A stretch of DNA of 64,000 nucleotides from an uncultured Planctomycetales bacterium (GCA_963710365.1 CAVQAC010000019.1:552969-616968), one strand, 5' to 3'. Shown: positions 7,679 to 20,600, numbered from the stretch's first letter. Numbers and translations are program-made. The notes: a model not told the origin generated them from the sequence alone.

Positions 7679-7818
7679 GGCGAATCTCCGAGGAAGGCGC
7701 AAGCGGGCGGATTACCCGCGTCATTCTACCGTGCCTCGAATGGCAACACAAAGTTACTGACCAAAACAGCCACCTCATTCGATCTGATGAGACCCGAGGC
7801 GCCACGCGACGAACATTG

Positions 7819-8265
7819 TTAAATCGGCCGGATGCGTCTGACCTGCGGCTCACAAGCGGACACCACGTCGATGACATGGTTCAGGCAATTGATTCCCCAG
7901 TGCCGCAGCAGTCCAGGATACTCGTCACTTGCGAAGGTCGCCCGCGCCACGTAATCAAGGAAGTGGGATTTCTTGTACAGGCACAACAACCGACCTTCCC
8001 AGGCCTCTGCGTCATCAAGCGTACAAAACGATTCGTTCCGCACGGAGTAGCAGACGTACGTCTCCCAGACCAACACAAAAAGCCGGCAGCTTTCGTCGGA
8101 CTCGATACTACGGCAGCCAGGGATTACGTTCCCAGGCGACACTTCGAAATTCTCTGGCGGACCTTCAGATTTTGCCTCCTCAATTTCGAGTCGTAGCGAA
8201 TTATCTCTCGGCTCGGTGAGCTCGCGCAAATACAAGTACTTACAGTCGTCGATCTCAGCAGACAT
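7819..8265 (-). CDS. hypothetical small cytoplasmic protein (immunity-protein-like; speculative)
   Basis: ORF 7819-8394 trimmed to the ATG at 8265 (MSAEIDDCKYLYL..), giving 148 aa with no signal or TM segment. GC is lower than in the flanks, and it is divergent from the next gene. No family recognised. Confidence 0.4.
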   Translation of the reverse strand: MSAEIDDCKYLYLRELTEPRDNSLRLEIEEAKSEGPPENFEVSPGNVIPGCRSIESDESCRLFVLVWETYVCYSVRNESFCTLDDAEAWEGRLLCLYKKSHFLDYVARATFASDEYPGLLRHWGINCLNHVIDVVSACEPQVRRIRPI

Positions 8266-8460
8266 ACGTCGGACCCAAAAAATCAATGGAAATACTGCAT
8301 CACGACATCTTACCACTTCGCAGTTCATTACGTGAGGACGGTCATGCGTTCCGAGCCGCGGACGCCCGGCAACGTGATCTCCCAGTACTTGCACCCGCTC
8401 AGGGCATCAACCACAATAACGCGCGGCCCCGCCCCAACTCCTGCCAATGCGATTTGCCCT

Positions 8461-9436
8461 ATGAACCGTTTATGCTTTTGGTTCGTGCTGATTGCCTGTT
8501 TCTGCGATTCGTTCTCGACGTTTTCCCAAACGCCGACGCGTAAGCCGACGGTGTGGATGTGCCCACCGGGATTTGACGGCGGCAAGCATTTTGCCGAGCT
8601 GTTCGAAAAGCCCGACGAGTGGCAGCAAACCCGTAAGGCGATCGACGTGCTGGGCTATGCCGACCTGAACTTCAAGAAGCACTTCAGCGACGAACAGTTG
8701 CAGGCCTGGCTTCCCAAATTGAACGAGTGGGGCATCAAGCTCGGGCTCGAAGTCGGCGCCATCAAGGCTTGGGGCCAGAACCGGTGAAAAAGCGTTCCAG
8801 GCCGAGCAGCCAATCTGGCAGCGGATCGAGCGGCTCGGGGGCAAGATTCATTCGATCGCCATGGATGAGCCGCTGTGTTGCTGCCGCAAGGAGATCCACC
8901 AGCCCGACGACTATGCCGTCGCGCGAAACGGCCAATTACATCGCCCTGGTGCGAAAGCATTATCCGCAGATGCTGATCGGCGAGATCGAGCCGTATCCAT
9001 TTCTTTCGCTTGGACGAGCACATCGCCTGGATCGAGGCGTTGGAAAAACGCCTGGCCGAATTGCAAGTTCGCGGCTTGGACTTTTATCGGCTGGACGTGA
9101 ATTGGGTGGAATTCAACGCGCAAAGCCGCGGCATCGTGGCGCGAAGTCCGCAAGCTGGAGCAGTACTGCCGCCGGCGGAAGCTGCCGTTCAGTCTGATCT
9201 ATTGGGCCTCGGGCTATCCGGCGCTCGAGCGTCGCGGGCTGGCCGACGATGCGGCCTCGTACGTTTCGATCATGCAGCAAGGCTACGATTACGCGCTGGT
9301 CGACGGCTCGCCGGATCAGATCGTGGTGCAAAGTTGGATCAATGCGCCAAGCCGCAGCGTGCCGGAAACGGTCGACTTCACTTTCGCTCGCACGGTGCTC
9401 GACTTTACGCAGCGTTTCGCGCGGCCGAAAAAATAG
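8461..9436 (+). pseudogene. secreted hypothetical protein, at least 4 frame breaks (about 8780, 8925, 9005, 9130)
   Basis: Signal peptide MNRLCFWFVLIACFCDSFSTFSQ. Protein-like sequence continues by hopping frames: ..LEVGAIKAWGQ / TGEKAFQAEQPIWQRIERLGGKIHSIAMDEPL..DDYAV / ETANYIALVRKHYPQMLIGEIEPYPFLSL / DEHIAWIEALEKRLAELQVRGLDFYRLDVNWVEFNAQSRG / WREVRKLEQYCRRRKLPFSLIYWASGYPALERRGL...TQRFARPKK, with a stop at 9434-9436. Confidence 0.5.
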
Positions 9437-10212
9437 CGCTGGCCGAAGCCGCGTGGGGTATTCGCCCTACTCATTCGTGATCGGGTGTTGAGGTCGGGTT
9501 ATAATCGCGTTGGGTTGCACTTCGCTGTGAATGAGGCCGCGATGACGACGCACGAGAATTGCCCGCGATAACCGAGGTGATTGCCTACGGCAGCGCTGAG
9601 TATACCGTCGAGCTGGTCATTGACCTCCAAGAGCTCTTGTGCAGACAGTTCCGCCTGTGGCGAATATTGCTCGAATCCCACGCCGTTGACGACTTGATCC
9701 TCATTTATCCCGATTGTGTACGTAATAACGACGCCAGTCCCGGCGAACCTTTGGCCAACACGCTGGCGAGGGTCAACGCGCACGCACAGGCCAGCAAGAG
9801 ACTCTTCAGCCGATATTCGATCATCACCAATCCTGACTACTACCAGTCAACTGAGCCTCCGCGGTTTTGCGAGGCCAACGTCGCTTACAACGCGGAGACC
9901 GCCGAATGCGATCCAGGTTGGCCAAGATTCAATACGGTCGCCGAACCACCTGAGCTGACGACCGACGAATACCTTGAGATCGAGAACGATCTAGTCCCCG
10001 CGTTGGAACGTTATGGGCATGTCGTTACAAAAAGCGACCTCTCCGATACGTCGAAAGAGAAGCTCCATGCCCTCTGGTTGCTCCGCACCTCCTGGATGCA
10101 ATGGGACCGCACAAGGATTCTGGTCAAATACGGAAACCAAGAGTTTTCAGACGGCCTGATTCGAGATATTCAGTCGGCACTGCAAAACTGGCCGCTGTGG
10201 CGCGTGGCGCTA

Positions 10213-11388
10213 TAGTGTCCTGAGTTATAAATTCGCTGAAATAGTCTTGCGCCTGGCCGCGGGCCGTGTAGGCTTTCTCGAAAGGAGAAAGCCGATGGCT
10301 ATGGGACGACCGAAAGCGGAGTTGGTTTTGAGCGACGAGGAGCGGCAAGCGCTGGAACGCTGGGCGCGGCGGCCGAAGAGCAGTCAGCAACTGGCGCTGA
10401 GGTCGCGAATTGTATTGAGTTGTGGTGACGGTCGCACGAACCAGCAAGTGGCCAAAGAGTTGCGGATCAGCATGCCGACCGTGGGCAAGTGGCGAGCTCG
10501 CTTCGTGGCGCGGCGTTTGGACGGGTTGTTGGATGAACCACGGCCGGGCACGCCGCGCACGATTAGCGACGAACAGGTTGAAAAAGTGATCACCAAAACG
10601 TTGGAAACGAAGCCGCAGCACGCGACCCACTGGAGCACTCGCGGCATGGCGAAGGCCACGGGCCTGAGCCAGACGGCGATCTCCCGGATTTGGCGAGCTT
10701 TCAACCTTCAACCGCACCGCACCGAAACGTTCAAGCTGTCGACCGACCCGCAATTCATCGAAAAAGTCCGCGATGTCGTCGGCTTGTACATGAATCCGCC
10801 CGACCGGGCCATCGTCTTGTGCGTCGACGAAAAGAGCCAAGTGCAGGCTTTGGATCGCAGCCAACCGCTGCTGCCGATGAGTTCTGGGCAAGTGGAACGG
10901 CATACGCACGACTACGTTCGCTATGGAACTACCTCGTTGTTTGCGGCTTTGGAAGTTGCGACCGGAAAGGTGATCGGTAACTGTCAACAACAGCATCGGC
11001 ATCAGGAGTTCATCAAGTTCCTGGAACTGATCGACGAGCAGATTCCGGAAGTGCCTGGGATTGAAATTCACTTGGTCATGGACAACTACGCCACGCACAA
11101 AACGCCCAAGGTCAAACGTTGGTTCGCTCGGCGTCCGCGTTATCATGTGCATTTCATTCCCACGAGTTCATCGTGGCTGAATCAGGTCGAGCGATTCTTT
11201 GCTGAAATCACGGAGAAACGCATTCGTCGCGGCGCGTTCCGTAGCGTGCAAGCCCTTCGCAAGGCGATCGAAGGATACCTGGACCACCACAACCGCAAAG
11301 CACGGCCGTTCGTCTGGACCGCCGACGCTGATTTGATTCTCGCCCGCGTTAAAAAGGTTTGTAAACGGATTAACAACTCAGGACACTA
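10213..11388 (+). mobile_element. IS630-family insertion sequence (boundaries +/-2 nt because of TA duplication)
   Basis: Terminal inverted repeats TAGTGTCCTGAGTT (10213-10226) and AACTCAGGACACTA (11375-11388). Removing the element and one TA restores ..GCG CTA GAC GCT.. (A L D A), i.e. a CTAG target. A single intact DDE transposase ORF fills the element. Confidence 0.9.
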
Positions 11389-11389
11389 G
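10295..11389 (+). CDS. IS630-family transposase
   Basis: AGGAG 8 nt before the ATG at 10295 (MAMGRPKAEL..). It has an N-terminal HTH region, then LCVDEKSQVQAL, HLVMDNYATHKT and SSSWLNQVERFF (DDE triad context). The stop codon lies in the right terminal repeat. No frame break in 1.1 kb. Confidence 0.9.
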   Translation: MAMGRPKAELVLSDEERQALERWARRPKSSQQLALRSRIVLSCGDGRTNQQVAKELRISMPTVGKWRARFVARRLDGLLDEPRPGTPRTISDEQVEKVITKTLETKPQHATHWSTRGMAKATGLSQTAISRIWRAFNLQPHRTETFKLSTDPQFIEKVRDVVGLYMNPPDRAIVLCVDEKSQVQALDRSQPLLPMSSGQVERHTHDYVRYGTTSLFAALEVATGKVIGNCQQQHRHQEFIKFLELIDEQIPEVPGIEIHLVMDNYATHKTPKVKRWFARRPRYHVHFIPTSSSWLNQVERFFAEITEKRIRRGAFRSVQALRKAIEGYLDHHNRKARPFVWTADADLILARVKKVCKRINNSGH

Positions 11390-11497
11390 ACGCTGAAGAC
11401 ATACGAGACGTGCGGTTCGTTTATCCGGACTTCATTCGCTGAGTCGCAAACGCTGACGGATCCTAGTGACCCGAGAACACCGAGACGGGTGATGGAT

Positions 11498-12461
11498 ATG
11501 GCGAGCCATGGAAACTGCCCGCGGTTCCCTTCCCTAGCGGAATGTGCATTACGCTACAACGTTTCCGAATCGGAGCGAGAATCCGACGAATTAATTCACC
11601 AGAGCGAGCCCGATCTGCCGCCGATTAGCGACGTCGAGATTTCGCTGATTTATCGGCTGCCACAACCGGTCATCGACAAACATAACCGTGCGCACGGTTT
11701 CACGGATCAAGGGGCCGATTATTACTACCTGGTTGGCGACCGTTGGGAAGATGACCGGACGTTTAACGTCACGGCATACGGCAATGCCGAATACACCGCC
11801 GAGCTTGTGCTTGATCTCCAACTCCTGCTGCGCCGAAAACTGTCGCTTTGGCGAATCGCACTCTTGGCCAATGTGCTCGATGACCGTATTTACGTCTATC
11901 CGGAGTGCGTGCGGAACAACGACGCGACGTTAGACGAGCCCCTTGCGGTGACCCTGCGGCGAGTGAACGCCCATGAACGGGCATGGCGACAACTAGTTAA
12001 TCGCTATTCAGTCGCCGAACAACCTGGATATAGTCAGCGGACCTCAGTGCCCCCGCGGCTTTGTGAAACAAAAGTCGCATACAATGCTAATGAGGCCGAG
12101 TGTGCTCCTGCGTGGCCTCGATTCAACACCGTTTCCGACCCGCCGGAACTTACCACCGTGGAATATCTCGATCTCGACGGTGAGCTAGTCCGCTCGCTTG
12201 AGCAATACGGGCCGGTCGTTTGCAAGAATCACTTATCGGATACATCCAAGCAAAGGCTCAATGCGCATCTGGCTGGTCCGAACGACAGTTATGCAGTGGG
12301 ATCGGACGCGAATCCTGATCAGGTATGGCGAGGAACGATCCACCCCGGAGTTGATTCGCGAGATCCAAGGCGCCCTGCAATGCTGGCCGCTGTGGCGCGT
12401 GGCCTTGGACGCCGAGGATGAACGCGACGTGAGGTTCGTTTATCCGGAATTCATTCGGTAG
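11498..12461 (+). pseudogene. paralogue B of the tandem two-domain family, one frame break about 12265
   Basis: MASHGNCPRFPSLAECALRYNVSESERE... is colinear with paralogue C up to ..SDTSKQRLNA. The rest (LWLVRTTVMQWDRTRILIRYGEERSTPELIREIQGALQCWPLWRVALDAEDERDVRFVYPEFIR) lies in the frame of ORF 12198-12461. Confidence 0.8.
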
Positions 12462-12513
12462 AATGGCCCGTGGGAAGTAGCCGAGACTTTACTTCACCGA
12501 AACCGAGCCCTGC

Positions 12514-13473
12514 ATGCCAACTCACGACCATTGCCCGCGATATCCATCATTGGCCCAGTGCGGCCTACGTTACAATCTCTCTGATTCAGAACGGGAAAAC
12601 GACGAGGAACTGCATCAGACCGAGCCCAACGTCCCGCCGATCGGTGATAAAGAGTACGGCCGGATCACGAGGGCCATTACCCCGGTGATCGAAAAACACA
12701 ATCAGCAGTATGGTTATACGGACGAAGGAACGGACTACTACTACCTGATGGGCGACCAGTTTCGCGGCGACAGAACGATCGAGGTCACAGTCTACGGGAA
12801 GGCCGCCTACACGCGTGAGTTTGTCAGCGCTCTACAGTTGCTTCTGCGCCGCACTCTCCGACTCTGGCGAATACTGCTGGTAGCGAATGTTCGTGACGAC
12901 CTGATCCTTGTTTATCCGGATACGGTGCGAAATAACGATGCCGTTCCCGGGGAGTCATTGGCGGATACGCTGGTGAGAGTGAACGCCCATTCACAGGCGT
13001 GGCAGCGACTTTTTCACCGCTACCTGGCAAGCGCTGCACCGGGGTACCGACAGCCCATGGAGCCACCGCGATTGTGCGAAATGAAGGTTGCCTACAATGC
13101 CGCATCGGAAGAAGTCGATTCCAACTTGCCAAGGTTCAACACGATTGCAAATCCACCGGAACTTACGACGGACGAGTATCTCGACATGGAGAAAGACCTG
13201 GTTCCTGTACTCGAACGGTATGGGCCAGTTGTTACAAAGAGCGACGTCTCAGACCTGACGAAAGAGAAACTAAACTCGCTATGGTTAATTCGCACAACCG
13301 CTATGCAATGGGACCGCACGCGCATCCTAGTTCGTTATGGCACCCAACAATTCACCCCGGAGCTGATTAGCGGGATTCAAGGCGTCCTGCAACGCTGGCC
13401 GCTATGGCGCGTGGCTTTGGACGCCGAGGATGAGCATGAAGCGCGGTTCATCTATCCAAACATGATTCACTAG
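12514..13473 (+). CDS. paralogue C (intact, 319 aa) of the tandem two-domain family; function unknown
   Basis: Full-length ORF with ATG start. It contains an internal duplication: GDRTIEVTVYGKAAYTREFVSALQLLLRRTLRLWRILL..LILVYPDTV versus WDRTRILVRYGTQQFTPELISGIQGVLQRWPLWRVAL..ARFIYPNMI. The N-terminal motif H-x2-CPR[YF]PSLA-x-C is conserved across the paralogues. Confidence 0.8.
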   Translation: MPTHDHCPRYPSLAQCGLRYNLSDSERENDEELHQTEPNVPPIGDKEYGRITRAITPVIEKHNQQYGYTDEGTDYYYLMGDQFRGDRTIEVTVYGKAAYTREFVSALQLLLRRTLRLWRILLVANVRDDLILVYPDTVRNNDAVPGESLADTLVRVNAHSQAWQRLFHRYLASAAPGYRQPMEPPRLCEMKVAYNAASEEVDSNLPRFNTIANPPELTTDEYLDMEKDLVPVLERYGPVVTKSDVSDLTKEKLNSLWLIRTTAMQWDRTRILVRYGTQQFTPELISGIQGVLQRWPLWRVALDAEDEHEARFIYPNMIH

Positions 13474-13624
13474 CCGAGCGCTTGTATTGCGGCATGAATT
13501 TGCGACTACGCGCCTTCTTTCTCGCGCTTTGTACAATATTTTGATTGCAATCAGGCCAGCGACTCGCGTAAGCTTCATGTGAAACGAGGTATCAGCCGAG
13601 CCCAAAGTCTCAGGTATCCCAAGA

Positions 13625-13670
13625 GCCCGTTGTCGGAGCCAGTCAGCGCCTCCGCCAGCGGGCTTTTTTT
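13625..13670 (+). terminator. intrinsic terminator after the paralogue array
   Basis: GCCCG..CGGAG-loop-CTCCG..CGGGC stem followed by T7 (13664-13670), about 150 nt after the stop of paralogue C. Confidence 0.6.
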
Positions 13671-13729
13671 ATTTGGTCATTACAGATTGGCATCGCGTAG
13701 CGCCAACCGCGAGTCACCAGAGAATTACC

Positions 13730-14383
13730 ATGGCAGAAGGCCATCATTGGGTGCCGACATCTGTTCGTAAGAAGCTTGAAACCTTCCTGTCAACTGATGC
13801 GCAGAAAACCTTCAAACGATCCGTCACGGGAGATCCTTACGGAGTCACTCACGATGCGACATCCCAAAATGGCGTCTCGCACAATGAATATAACCAGCGA
13901 GTTATGAGCAAGTTAAGCGAGAAGATTGATCGGCTGCGAAATGAGGGCGCTCTGGTTAAGGGAAAGTTAACGGGGCCCCAGGCCGAGGCGTTCGTCGCTG
14001 GAATCAAGAAGAATGGTCTCGGCGATAAACGAATTCAGCTCTTCAACCAGGGAGTCCTCAAGACACTCAAGTTAATTGCCCTCGGTGGCATTATGATGAA
14101 GGGCCTGGAACAAGCAGCGAGAGCTCAGAATCTAGGCAATGCGGTCATAAGCAATAACCACTATAAAAATGCGGTAGTCGCGTTGCAGAGGGGCGATTGG
14201 CGACGGGCAAATGCGGAAATCCAAGGTGGATATCCAAGCGGTAAGAACCTGGTCGATGACCTGATAAATGCAGGCTATTACAGGGACGGATTGACCCTGC
14301 TTGGTCTTTGGCAGCGGCGGGAGAAGGACTTCATCAAGATCGAAAACGGCCAGAGCGTGGCAGGCGTGCCCGACGATTTCTGA
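13730..14383 (+). CDS. stand-alone HNH/EndoVII-fold nuclease-like protein of the GHH/AHH type (putative), with a C-terminal helical domain
   Basis: MAEGHHWVPTSV.. gives an HH-x2-P signature as in ColE9-type and AHH/GHH toxin domains. It is followed by ..YGVTHDATSQNGVSHNEYNQRVMSKL (H...N-G-x-x-H-x-x-Y). This is the lowest GC in the window (two hand-counted 60-nt samples gave 43% and 47%). It has its own upstream AT-rich region after a terminator. Confidence 0.4.
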   Translation: MAEGHHWVPTSVRKKLETFLSTDAQKTFKRSVTGDPYGVTHDATSQNGVSHNEYNQRVMSKLSEKIDRLRNEGALVKGKLTGPQAEAFVAGIKKNGLGDKRIQLFNQGVLKTLKLIALGGIMMKGLEQAARAQNLGNAVISNNHYKNAVVALQRGDWRRANAEIQGGYPSGKNLVDDLINAGYYRDGLTLLGLWQRREKDFIKIENGQSVAGVPDDF

Positions 14384-14546
14384 TCCCAGGCGCGAACCAA
14401 GCCCCGGAGCCGGGCGACGAAAATGCGAACTGGGGAGAGGCGACCACGCACGCGGGCCGCGATTCAAGAGGTATTGTCAGACCGATGCGATCCCGGCGCG
14501 CGCTCGCGCCGGAATCGATGGTCTTCGTTGGCCTCGGCGCCGGCTG

Positions 14547-14592: not shown

Positions 14593-15427
14593 TCAACCGC
14601 CGAATTCGGGGCGACGCCGTTCGAGCTGCAATTGCAGCCGCTGCACGATCGAGCTGTGCATCTGGCTGACGCGGCTCTCGGAGAGATCGAGCGTGGCGCC
14701 GATCTCCTTCATCGTCAACTCTTCATAGTAGTAGAGGATGATGATCAGCCGCTCGTTGCGATTCAATCCCTTGGTCACCAGCCGCATCAGATCTGTTTTC
14801 TGGATGCGGCGGGTGGGATCCTCGCCCTTCTTGTCTTCCAGGATGTCGATCTCGCGGACATCCTTGTAGCTGTCCGTCTCGTACCACTTCTTGTTCAGGC
14901 TGATGAGCCCCACGGCGTTGGCCTCGAGCATCATCTTTTCCAGCTCGGGCACGCTGATCTGCAACTGCGTGGAGAGCTCGGCTTCCGTCGGGAGCCCGGC
15001 CCAGCCTGGCTTCCAATGTCTTGAGAGCTTCGTTGAGCTTGCTGGCCTTGGAGCGCACCAGGCGCGGCACCCAGTCCATGGTGCGCAGCTCGTCGAGCAT
15101 GGCCCCGCGGATACGCGGCACGCAATAGGTCTCGAACTTTACGCCGCGACCCAGATCGAAAGCGTCGATCGCATCCATCAGGCCGAACACGCCGGCCGAA
15201 ACCAGGTCGTCCAGTTCGACGCCCTCGGGGAGCCGTGACCAGATGCGCTCGCCGTTGTATTTGACAAGCGGCAGATACATCTCCACCAGCTTGTTGCGCA
15301 GTTCCTGGTTGGTGATATCGACCTTGAAGGCTTCCCAGATCTGCGTCACTTCTTCCGAGGCGACGGTGGTTGCCATGCACTCCTCCATGCTTGCACGCGG
15401 CGACTTCTTTTCTTGATCGAGATCCAT
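14593..15427 (-). pseudogene. fliA: flagellar RNA polymerase sigma factor (sigma-28 / FliA), one frame break at about 14990
   Basis: N-terminal frame (ORF 14723-15427): region 2 LVEMYLPLVKYNGERIW, DLVSAGVFGLMDAIDAFD, FETYCVPRIRGAMLDELR. C-terminal frame (ORF 14593-14964): regions 3-4 ..LNRNERLIIILYYYEELTMKEIGATLDLSESRVSQMHS. The join LGRAP / TEAELSTQLQISVPELE sits at a GGG run (14990-14992). Confidence 0.9.
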
Positions 15428-18094: not shown

Positions 18095-20172
18095 TTACGT
18101 TCGGGCCGGCGGCACGTCGGCGACCAGTCCCAGTGATTCGATCTGCGTATCGCGCGTGATTTCGTTGTAGCTCAGCACCACCAACTGCGGCAGGTGCGAG
18201 GATGTCATCTGCTTGAGCGCCGAGCGGATTTGTGGGCTCACCAGCACGATGGGCGGATGGTTCGTGCGAATCAGTTTGTCCAGCTCCTTGCCGATCAGCC
18301 GGCTGATCGTTTCGATGGCCGTCGGCGACATGCGGATGAACAGGCCTCGATCGTTGTGCTCGAAGCCGGCTCGAATACGGTCCTCCAAGGCCGGGTCGAG
18401 CGTCACGACGTACAACCGGCTGTTGGCGTCGCGATAGCGGCTGCAAATGGTGCGGGCCAACCGATGGCGGACGTATTCGGTCAATAACAAAGGGTCGCGG
18501 GTGCGGCCGGCGTAGTCGCCCAGCGTTTCCAGGATCGGACTGAGTTGGCGGATCGGCACCTGCTCGCGCAGCATCATCTGCAGGATCTGTTGCACTTCGG
18601 CCAGCTTCAACTGGCCGGGAATCAATTCGTCGACCACGGCCGGCGAGGCTTTTTTCAGTTCGTCGACCAGATGCTTGGTGGCGTCGCGACTGAGAATTTC
18701 ATCGGCATGCTTGCGAACCGTTTCGGTCAGATGCGTGGCCAGCACGCTGACCGGCTCGACGACCGTATAGCCCAGCATTTCGGCCTGGTCGCGCTGCGCG
18801 GGTTCGATCCACACGGCGGCAGTGCCGAAGGCCGGCTCCTTGATTTGCAGGCCCTTGAGCTTGCCGGTGGTCACGCCGGAATCCATGGCCAAGAGCATTG
18901 CCGGGTAAATGACGCCGTCGGTGACCGGCACGTCCGACACCTTGAGCCGATAGGAGTTCTGTTCGAGCCGCATGTTGTCGCGGATGCGGACCTTGGGCAT
19001 GATGATGCCGATTTCGGCAGCCACGTTCTGCCGCACGCGTTGCACGCGCTCCAGCAAGTCGCCGCCGCGTTTGGGATCGGCCAGCCGAATCAGGCCTACG
19101 CCGATTTCGATCTCCATCGGATCGACGGACAGGTAGTCTTCGATGCGTTCTTCGGCCGGCTTCTTCTGGTCGGCCTGGGCCTTGGCCTGGGCGACCACCT
19201 TGGTCTGCTTTTGCTTGCGCGAAAGCATCACCGCCAGCGCGCCGCAACCGCCGCCGATGGCGATCAAAGGAGTCTTGGGCAGGCTCGTGAACACCAGCAT
19301 CAGCAGAAATCCGGCAGTCACGGCCAGCGCCTGCGGACGCGAAAACAACTGCGACATGAAGTCCGCCGGCAGGCTGCTGTCGTTGCTCGAACGCGTGACG
19401 AGCAAGCCGGCTGCCAGCGAGATCAGGAAGGCCGGCACCTGGCTGACCAGGCCGTCGCCGATCGTCAGCTTGGTGAAGATTTCAGCGGCGGCGCCGATAC
19501 TCATCCCCGATTCGATGACGCCGATGAACAGTCCGCCCACGATATTGACCAGCGTAATCACGATACCGGCGATGGCGTCGCCGCGCACGAATTTGCTGGC
19601 ACCGTCCATGGCCCCGAAGAAATCTGCCTGGCGGCTGATGTCCAAGCGTCGGCGCTGAGCTTCGCGTTCGTCGATCACGCCGGCGTTCAGGTCGGCATCA
19701 ATGGCCATCTGGCGGCCGGGCATGCCGTCCAAGGCAAAGCGCGCGGCGACTTCGCTAATGCGCGTGGCGCCCTTGGTGATGACGACGAACTGAATCACCA
19801 CGATGATCGTAAAGATAATCAGCCCCACGACGACCCGGTCGCCGGCCACGAACTCGCCGAACGTACGGACGACCTCGCCGGCCGCCAGCAATCCGTGGGT
19901 CTGGGCGCGGTGAGTATCAGCCGCGTCGTGGCAACGTTGAGCACTAATCGGCCCAGCGTCGTGGCCAGCAACAGCGAGGGAAAGATGCTGAATTCCAGCG
20001 GCGTGCGCACGTAAATCGTCGTCAGCAACATGATGACGGCGACGCTGATGTTGATGGCCAATAACAGGTCCATCAGCGCCGGCGGCATGGGCACCATGAT
20101 CACCAGCACGCTGGCAATGAAGCCTAGCGGCAAGATCAGGTCGGCCGCACGGCTGAGCACGTTACGCGCCAC
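18095..20172 (-). pseudogene. flhA: flagellar type III export protein FlhA, one frame break about 19905
   Basis: The C-terminal 598-aa piece carries the FHIPEP core (GAMDGASKFVRGDAIAG) and the cytoplasmic domain. The N-terminal TM piece (..ADLILPLGFIASVLVIMVPMPPALMDLLLAINISVAVIMLLTTIYV..ATTRLIL) is in the frame of ORF 19819-20427. The start is taken as the GTG at 20172 (VARNVLSR..), which is uncertain. Confidence 0.88.
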
Positions 20173-20600
20173 CGGCCGCGGGCAATACACCAGAAGCCAT
20201 CCGTGTCTCCGGTGGTAAGCCGTCAGAAGCGAAGATTTGAACAGGTAGAAAAGAGGGGCGGAAGTTACTGAAAACACTGATGGATGTCCAGTCCGCTTTC
20301 CGCCCCCCGGCAGGCGGACGATCGTCAGCATTGCAGGACTTGCAACTGCCTTCGATCGTAGCCGAGAGGGAAGCGGGGTTGACTTGAAATCGCCAAACCG
20401 GCTACCAATGCTCACCCTCGTCGGCACGCTGATAGCGATGCCGCCACCATGCGGGCAAGGCCCTGCCGGTCGATGGGCAAAAGCGCTTCAAGTCGCAAGC
20501 GGCCGAGGGGCGATAATCCAACGGCTGTCTGGAATCAGACAGACTCAGCATTGCTGAAAACCAGGCCGAATTCATCGGTCGCGTAAACGAGCAAACTCAA

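Follow-up and report, generated by a model that had tools for sequence, protein, structure and literature searches.

The stretch of DNA analyzed here, 64,000 nt from an uncultured Planctomycetales bacterium (GCA_963710365.1 CAVQAC010000019.1:552969-616968; hereafter the window), carries at 13730-14383 a gene for a 217-amino acid (aa) protein that is probably the toxin of a two-gene, polymorphic-type toxin-immunity cassette in free-standing form. Its sequence suggests a divergent His-Me finger nuclease of the AHH type as the most likely identity of the toxin. Translation of the plus strand gave a protein running from MAEGHHWVP to GVPDDF, with the N-terminal stretch MAEGHHWVPTSVRKK. GHHWVP occupies residues 4-9 and THDATSQNGVSHNEYNQRV occupies residues 40-58, and both had been placed correctly by the initial annotation of this gene. 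That annotation had also described the open reading frame (ORF) as the lowest-GC gene of the window, beginning with a GHH signature, and the translation and the GC bins agreed with it. The GC content of the gene was 0.517 in comparison with 0.611 for the window, and the 600-nt bins over 13201-14400 were the lowest in the window; a low-GC island extends around the gene from about 7800 to 14400. Neither a signal peptide nor a delivery domain was found in the protein, as had been stated at the outset.

The family to which this protein belongs was collected by searching 1.84 billion representative proteins exhaustively with a profile, which gave 39 matches. A word-index homologue search gave a single match, P0002, with 60% identity, and a word-index search using an alignment of 35 sequences gave nothing beyond two proteins already known. 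The approximately 39 cluster representatives of the family are mostly planctomycete-like. The nearest relatives, P0003, P0004, P0007, P0008, and P0010, stand alone, are 205-227 aa long, and begin with M-[AGR]-x-G-H-H. Other relatives carry the module at the end of longer proteins. It stands directly behind an RHS tip in P0009 ('...DPSGMADGHHYV'), and also behind an RHS tip in P0013, P0014, P0016, P0017, P0018, P0022, P0025, P0028, P0030, P0033, P0035, P0036, and P0037. In P0040 it follows a HINT-like 'VHN' end (PT-HINT), in P0031, a cadherin/Big_9 protein of 1729 aa, it lies close to the C-terminus, and in another group of relatives it follows an N-terminal region marked by 'KHPR..GGQW'. The same toxin domain is common to proteins with different delivery or presentation regions (RHS/YD, PT-HINT, cadherin/Big_9, and 'KHPR..GGQW'), a hallmark of polymorphic toxins, and its position at the C-terminus of RHS, PT-HINT, and giant adhesin-like proteins supports the initial proposal of a polymorphic-toxin-type module. 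The same annotation had taken the domain to be the N-terminal part of a novel architecture, which did not hold. The helical C-terminal half, with an 'AL..GD...A' motif, is also present in several RHS-fused forms, and therefore the whole 217 aa corresponds to a complete C-terminal toxin module.

The evolutionary data showed that the free-standing form is maintained. Synonymous sites were saturated between the window and its homologues, with third-position identity of 0.34-0.42 for the toxin and immunity genes. The nonsynonymous divergence (dN) was 0.32-0.59, and its ratio to the synonymous divergence (dN/dS) was 0.1-0.3 for both genes in the comparisons that allowed an estimate of dS. Purifying selection acts on both genes, and since dN/dS is low with saturated synonymous sites, the free-standing toxin gene is not decaying. 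The C-terminal end GVPDDF (window 14360-14380) is kept in close free-standing homologues as GVPDDF, GVPTEF, GVPDQF, GVPDGF, and similar forms, and could be a short interaction or sorting motif. In the RHS-fused proteins P0009 and P0013, a Met and the first residues of the cassette stand right behind the RHS DPxG motif (DPSGMADGHH and DPFGTMAVGNH), and these junctions give the impression of an in-frame fusion of a free-standing cassette.

Conservation was examined in alignments of 33-35 homologues. G4, H6, and Y54 were invariant, H41 was invariant in some alignments and at least 90% conserved in others, and H5, A24, H51, and V58 were each at least 90% conserved, which gives the N-terminal domain the layout G4 H5 H6 ... 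H41 ... H51 xx Y54 N55. The HH dyad was thus conserved in the homologues, as initially expected, and two downstream His residues were conserved with it; N47, which had been proposed as the HNH Asn, was not. The published signature of Tox-AHH is '[AG]HH, N, H, H, Y', and that family is recorded in planctomycetes (PMC3482391). In the window protein the dyad, both further His residues, and the Tyr of this signature are present and the Asn is not. The Pfam AHH profile (PF14412), for which the gathering score is 22.3 bits, scored 14.8 bits (E 0.03) with the window protein, 16.7 bits (E 0.0077) with residues 1-125, and 17.2 bits (E 0.005) with the consensus of the toxin family, and in all three cases the GHH was aligned to profile positions 19-20. 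It matched 15 of the 35 family members (best E 3.3e-4) and was the only family recurring across members.

The initial annotation had likened the start of the protein to AHH/GHH/WHH toxin nucleases. No family member matched Tox-GHH (PF15636) or Tox-GHH2 (PF15635) at E up to 1. Tox-GHH requires WxxE, W, G[HQ]H, NIxF, and [DE]H (PMC3482391), and the signature of GHH2 is s[AGP]HH with HxxxH; in the toxin protein nothing lies ahead of GHH, and neither NIxF nor HxxxH is present. Membership of Tox-GHH was ruled out by the lack of a profile match and of these signature elements, and the published Tox-AHH signature fits better, though without the Asn. Other HNH profiles did not match the toxin family, and searches of NCBIfam, PADLOC, and PHROGs gave nothing for the toxin protein. 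Among the profile relationships suggested at first, the Tox-AHH signal stood, recurring and always below threshold, whereas those to Tox-GHH and other HNH profiles fell away.

AlphaFold2 with a 33-sequence alignment gave a confident single-domain model of the full-length protein (pLDDT 90.6, pTM 0.85), and the model of residues 1-80 had a pLDDT of 88. In both models H6 lies in a beta-bridge, which is followed by two helices (residues 10-30), a hairpin (45-50), and a helix (51-71) starting at H51. The modeled layout is compatible with a beta-beta-alpha finger carrying an insert, and a His-Me finger (HNH/EndoVII) fold is plausible for the toxin. The helical C-terminal half described in the initial annotation was confirmed by AlphaFold2; this subdomain (~110-217) bears a TPR-like 'AL.RGDW..A' motif. 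The AHH group had no structure in the 2017 classification of His-Me finger proteins (PMC5714182). A ColE9-type relationship, which had also been suggested, was rejected for lack of sequence or Foldseek similarity.

The key genomic context was missing from the initial annotation: a putative immunity gene family lies immediately upstream of the toxin gene, in three copies, of which A is split, B is changed in frame, and C is intact (Table 1). The 319-aa protein encoded by the intact copy belongs to a family with 14 homologues (about 15 close members). It had no match in Pfam, NCBIfam, PADLOC, PHROGs, or PDB, and contained no signal peptide or membrane segment. Among close family members, the immunity gene precedes the toxin gene in the window and in loci L001 and L015, and follows it in L002/L003/L008 and L004/L011. 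Remote immunity homologues were found directly downstream of the RHS-fused P0016 in L005 (BLASTP 7e-10, hidden Markov model (HMM) 1.7e-10), of the RHS-tip orphan P0022 in L006/L007 (BLASTP 3e-9, HMM 8.9e-10), and of P0019 in L014 (HMM 1.3e-3), and upstream of P0010 in L016 (hhalign 77% probability, E 2e-5). Altogether, the 319-aa family or its remote relatives adjoin a toxin gene in 9 locus types, in either order, and the family accompanied this toxin in all loci that could be read. Because of this linkage in either order, also behind RHS-fused forms, we read the 319-aa protein as the cognate immunity protein. In a locus search with an alignment of closer toxins, the best genome match was one Pirellulales metagenome-assembled genome (MAG). 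At L004 6924-7595 (the same as L011), the toxin homologue has D-T-H in place of G-H-H, while H41, H51, Y54, N55, and an intact immunity gene are kept; the L004 toxin has diverged faster than the L004 immunity gene (50% versus 74% aa identity to L002).

A conserved noncoding unit was found ahead of the toxin gene. Its promoter-like pattern, TTG[AC]AA-18-TAnnnT, was aligned in seven distinct loci and marks a candidate promoter. Two invariant boxes AGGTATCnnnnGAGCC follow at 13587-13602 and 13612-13627, and then a terminator hairpin (13621-13638 paired with 13650-13667) with a seven-T run at 13664-13670. A simple terminator scan missed this hairpin because its loop is 11 nt. The sequence of the stem varies between loci yet stays paired, with 8 compensated pairs, so the terminator that the initial annotation had placed ahead of the toxin gene is real, with a hairpin, a T-run, and covariation. 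When the regions ahead of the toxin gene were aligned for five loci, the T-rich stretch, the promoter-like site, the two-box core, the hairpin, and the T-run proved to be conserved in either gene order. Four locus types have the RNA unit ahead of the toxin gene, the gap between the T-run and the start codon is only 25-57 nt, and the window RNA folds better than its shuffled versions (z-score -3.1). The unit, about 90-105 nt long, was located at window 13545-13672, L001 1021-1126, L002 7092-7193, L004 6802-6903, L009 1911-2014, L010 867-968 (-), and L012 141-243 (-). A covariance model gave a single hit in each locus with the unit and no further hit in the rest of the window or in the RHS loci, and Rfam gave no match over 13400-13800. 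We read the unit as a promoter followed by a short terminated RNA, which would be a small RNA or a leader. A hairpin between the boxes that seemed by eye to be compensated was rejected, with 0 pairs changed on both sides in the model-based alignment, and the pairing of the two GGUAUC boxes predicted by RNAalifold is invariant and hence uninformative. At L015 380-430, the region upstream of P0003 lacks the RNA unit and has a near-consensus TTGACA-17-ATAATT promoter that encloses the palindrome ATGAACAA-TATT-TTGTTCAT; the 11-mer ACAATATTTTG is common to L015 and window 13532-13542.

From these data we infer a mechanism in which residues 1 to ~110 would act as a divergent relative of Tox-AHH (HNH/EndoVII, His-Me finger). 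In such families, the first His of the dyad is described as a metal ligand and the second as the water-activating base, with two helix-associated His residues as the remaining part of the metal site (PMC3113570). By analogy, H6 would be the residue that activates water, with H5, H41, and H51 as ligands of the catalytic metal. The toxin would degrade nucleic acid, most likely DNA, in the cytoplasm, and the helical C-terminal half is part of the same toxin module. The 319-aa cytoplasmic protein (12514-13473) is expected to neutralize the toxin by binding and blocking it, and the two further upstream immunity copies are degraded or allelic. Transcription of the toxin gene would pass through the conserved promoter, the ~90-nt RNA, and the terminator, and the toxin would be made only by read-through, which may keep its level below that of the immunity protein.

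Several findings weigh against this interpretation. No family member attained the Pfam AHH gathering score. The alignment had no column with a conserved Asn between H6 and H41, and N55 sits behind the last His; moreover, the first His of the dyad is replaced in two homologues (T-H in L004/L011 and N-H in P0013). Foldseek searches with the full-length and 1-80 models against PDB, and with the 1-80 fragment against BFVD, gave only matches with E > 2, and sequence and profile searches of PDB found no HNH protein and no nuclease. More distant toxins of the superfamily have HEAT-repeat proteins as partners in place of the 319-aa family, as at L013 5188-6402, where a Pfam HEAT-repeat protein outside the 319-aa family stands behind such a toxin. 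One toxin fold appears to be paired with at least two immunity families, and changes of partner are usual among polymorphic toxins. The RNA unit was found by a metagenome scan at three loci without the toxin (L009, L010, and L012), where it lies downstream of an Exo_endo_phos gene, and the covariance model did not find it ahead of the toxin gene in L015 or L016, so the cassette need not include it. No secretion system or other delivery gene was found within the 64-kb window. In searches by tblastn with RHS, cadherin, and other N-terminal regions, the window contained no RHS, HINT, or adhesin toxin gene, and it had no ORF of more than 834 codons. A full-length toxin gene or secretion genes close by, a further mark of polymorphic toxins, were thus not seen within the window.

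Other explanations were considered. The toxin and immunity genes might be a silent reserve, kept for transfer by recombination into a full-length gene, of the RHS or another polymorphic toxin type, at another place in the genome, as has been described for the toxin cassettes of polymorphic toxin loci. Free-standing toxin cassettes and immunity gene arrays are a described hallmark of polymorphic toxin systems (PMC3482391), the 'M-A-x-G-H-H' start kept right behind DPxG in P0009 and P0013 suggests exchange between free and fused forms, and the low-GC island contains an IS630 element. We consider a reserve unlikely, because no full-length toxin gene lies within 64 kb and no RHS-core fragment is present as a recombination handle, while purifying selection acts in several genomes on the free-standing form, which has a start codon of its own and occupies syntenic chromosomal positions in L002, L004, and L008. 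The conserved promoter-like sequences upstream, including the near-consensus promoter of L015, also argue against storage. The arrangement, in which a promoter is followed by a short RNA with two copies of a box, a terminator, and the toxin gene, resembles that of type III ToxIN loci. Together with a toxin that has no signal peptide or delivery domain, the absence of secretion genes nearby, and a two-gene unit conserved in either order, it could indicate an autonomous intracellular module of the toxin-antitoxin (TA) or abortive-infection type. In such a module the toxin would never be exported, and the immunity protein, perhaps with the small RNA, would restrain it until a stress or phage signal. 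This explanation is quite unlikely: neither protein matched PADLOC or PHROGs, other proteins clearly carry this toxin domain as the tip of an exported RHS toxin, and the RNA unit is missing from L015 and L016 and is present at some loci that have no toxin. A partner of 319 aa without a DNA-binding signature is also large for an antitoxin. We give a similarly low probability to an autonomous chromosomal module of Pirellulales-like planctomycetes in which an undescribed ~90-nt RNA (two invariant GGUAUC-N4-GAGCC boxes and the terminator) gates the toxin as a riboregulator or RNA co-antidote and the nuclease acts in its own cell and is not delivered to neighbors; this RNA also stands ahead of other genes at other loci. 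Known type III TA loci (ToxIN, CptIN, and TenpIN) share with the window the succession of promoter, short repeated RNA, intrinsic terminator, and toxin gene. However, the window toxin is not related to ToxN-type RNases, the RNA has just two boxes of 16 nt, the partner is an immunity protein, and the RNA unit also stands at toxin-less loci. A type III TA (ToxIN-like) assignment was rejected on the lack of a PADLOC match, the number of boxes, and the distribution of the unit with respect to the toxin.

The protein might also be a toxin that is not a nuclease, with the conserved His, Tyr, and Asn residues serving another metal-dependent activity or with the hydrophobic helix at ~110-125 targeting membranes. 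The AHH matches below threshold, the absence of an HNH match by Foldseek, and the first dyad His that some homologues dispense with would fit this idea, as would the conservation of a long, partly hydrophobic helix rich in Gly and Ala (LKLIALGGIMM). It is nonetheless unlikely: AHH was the sole recurring family, always in the same alignment register, the order [AG]HH ... H ... H..Y agrees with the published Tox-AHH signature, the immunity protein lacks a signal peptide and membrane segments, which is expected if the toxin acts in the cytoplasm, and the model is one compact soluble fold (pTM 0.85). A different proposal of the initial annotation concerned the regulation of the toxin gene, for which two palindromes were thought to form the operator of a repressor. 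Both palindromes exist; TGATTGCAATCA lies at 13542-13553, as had been given, but TTGTACAA lies at 13529-13536, one base away from its first placement, and neither is conserved in orthologous intergenic regions. The 12-mer overlaps the -35-like box, a typical position for an operator, and the L015 promoter contains a different palindrome as well as the 11-mer shared with the window. However, the left arm of the 12-mer and the 8-mer are not conserved; in L001, L002, L004, L009, L010, and L012 only TTG[AC]AA and the preceding T-rich stretch are kept. Each palindrome had at least one chance occurrence in 18% of shuffled windows, and the terminator lies between the palindrome site and the toxin gene. 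An operator role is very unlikely on these grounds, and a conserved palindromic operator was rejected in favor of a conserved promoter for a short terminated RNA, with the -35-like box of which the 12-mer overlaps.

The favored interpretation, a free-standing toxin with its immunity protein, was compared with known systems. Tox-AHH (Pfam AHH, PF14412), an HNH/EndoVII nuclease toxin domain (Zhang et al. 2011, 2012), shares with the window family the [AG]HH plus P, the two His residues, and the Tyr in the same order. Both are found at the C-terminus of RHS-type toxins with an immunity gene behind them, both occur in planctomycetes, and AHH was the sole profile that matched repeatedly. In contrast to Tox-AHH, the window family scores below threshold, has no conserved Asn, has ~35 residues, including two helices, between the dyad and the hairpin/helix, and carries an extra conserved helical subdomain of ~100 aa. 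The partners listed for Tox-AHH are Imm-PA2201, Imm-ank, and Imm11/20/23/24/43, and the window partner is none of these. Orphan or stand-alone cassettes of RHS and contact-dependent inhibition (CDI) systems resemble the window in having a toxin module without a delivery region beside an immunity gene, tandem immunity copies, and a low-GC island with an insertion sequence (IS) element. Unlike them, the window cassette is not beside a full-length toxin gene and has no residual RHS core, its toxin has its own start codon and conserved upstream signals, and the immunity gene precedes the toxin in four loci. The DNases of colicins E9 and E7 with Im9 and Im7 would, if the nuclease interpretation holds, share the principle of a His-Me finger DNase toxin neutralized by a co-encoded, dedicated immunity protein. 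They differ in showing no sequence or Foldseek similarity, and the window toxin has no receptor-binding or translocation domains. Im9 has about 85 aa, whereas the window immunity protein has 319 aa with an internal duplication.

The toxin-immunity pair is named by no current profile library, and both families could enter catalogues of toxins and immunity proteins, the toxin as an AHH-like subfamily with an extra helical subdomain and the partner as an immunity family with an internal duplication. At the family level the pair is new, the kind of system to which it belongs is well known, and current understanding is not overturned; stand-alone cassettes and immunity arrays are already described for polymorphic toxin systems. 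It offers a compact two-gene system in which to ask whether AHH-type domains really are His-Me finger nucleases. The free-standing form, kept by purifying selection in either gene order and away from a full-length toxin, bears on whether such cassettes are recombination stock or have a use of their own. With the upstream RNA unit there is also a candidate for a new leader or small RNA, in a phylum for which little is known about regulation by RNA.

Table 1. Coordinates of the cassette and associated features in the window
Feature	Position	Strand	Description	Evidence
Putative toxin gene	13730..14383	+	217 aa; residues 1-~110 AHH-like putative nuclease domain, ~110-217 helical subdomain	translation, profiles, alignments, AlphaFold2
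Promoter-like site	13545..13574	+	-35 TTGCAA (13545-13550), 18-nt spacer, -10 TAAGCT (13569-13574); T-rich stretch upstream	
Leader or small-RNA unit, ~90 nt	13581..13672	+	two boxes and intrinsic terminator; ends 57 nt before the toxin ATG	
Putative immunity copy C, intact	12514..13473	+	319 aa; internal duplication, aa ~86-157 and ~256-319 ('..PLWR..YP..')	
Putative immunity copy B	11498..12458	+	59-70% identical to C; frame shift near 12265	tblastn, HMM
Putative immunity copy A	9574..10212	+	only residues 90-302; N-terminally truncated; 3' end cut by IS630	tblastn, HMM
Displaced last 17 codons of copy A	11386..11436	+	beyond IS630; weak alone	tblastn aa 302-318, E 0.087
IS630-family transposase ORF	10247..11389	+	element ~10213-11385	NCBIfam NF033545, E 4e-83

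Immunity copy B is either a pseudogene or the product of an assembly indel. Its frameshift may be an assembly error, because fliA and flhA are also split over two frames. The split frames lie at 14593-15427 (-) for fliA, at 18095-20427 (-) for flhA, and at ~12265 (+) for copy B, and a gene at 8332-9480 (+) appears fragmented. Several frameshifts within 12 kb suggest assembly indel errors rather than true pseudogenes. The flagellar genes fliA, flhF, and flhA are on the minus strand of the window, and at the border of the low-GC island an ORF of 191 aa, 7819-8394 (-), had no match in Pfam or NCBIfam. In other loci, a 297-aa protein outside the 319-aa family, encoded behind a more distant toxin at L005 13337-14230, looked HEAT-like by eye only, and a DMP19-like protein (PF14300, E 1.9e-13) is encoded at L008 7844-8344 (-), right behind the toxin-immunity pair of a Pirellulales MAG.

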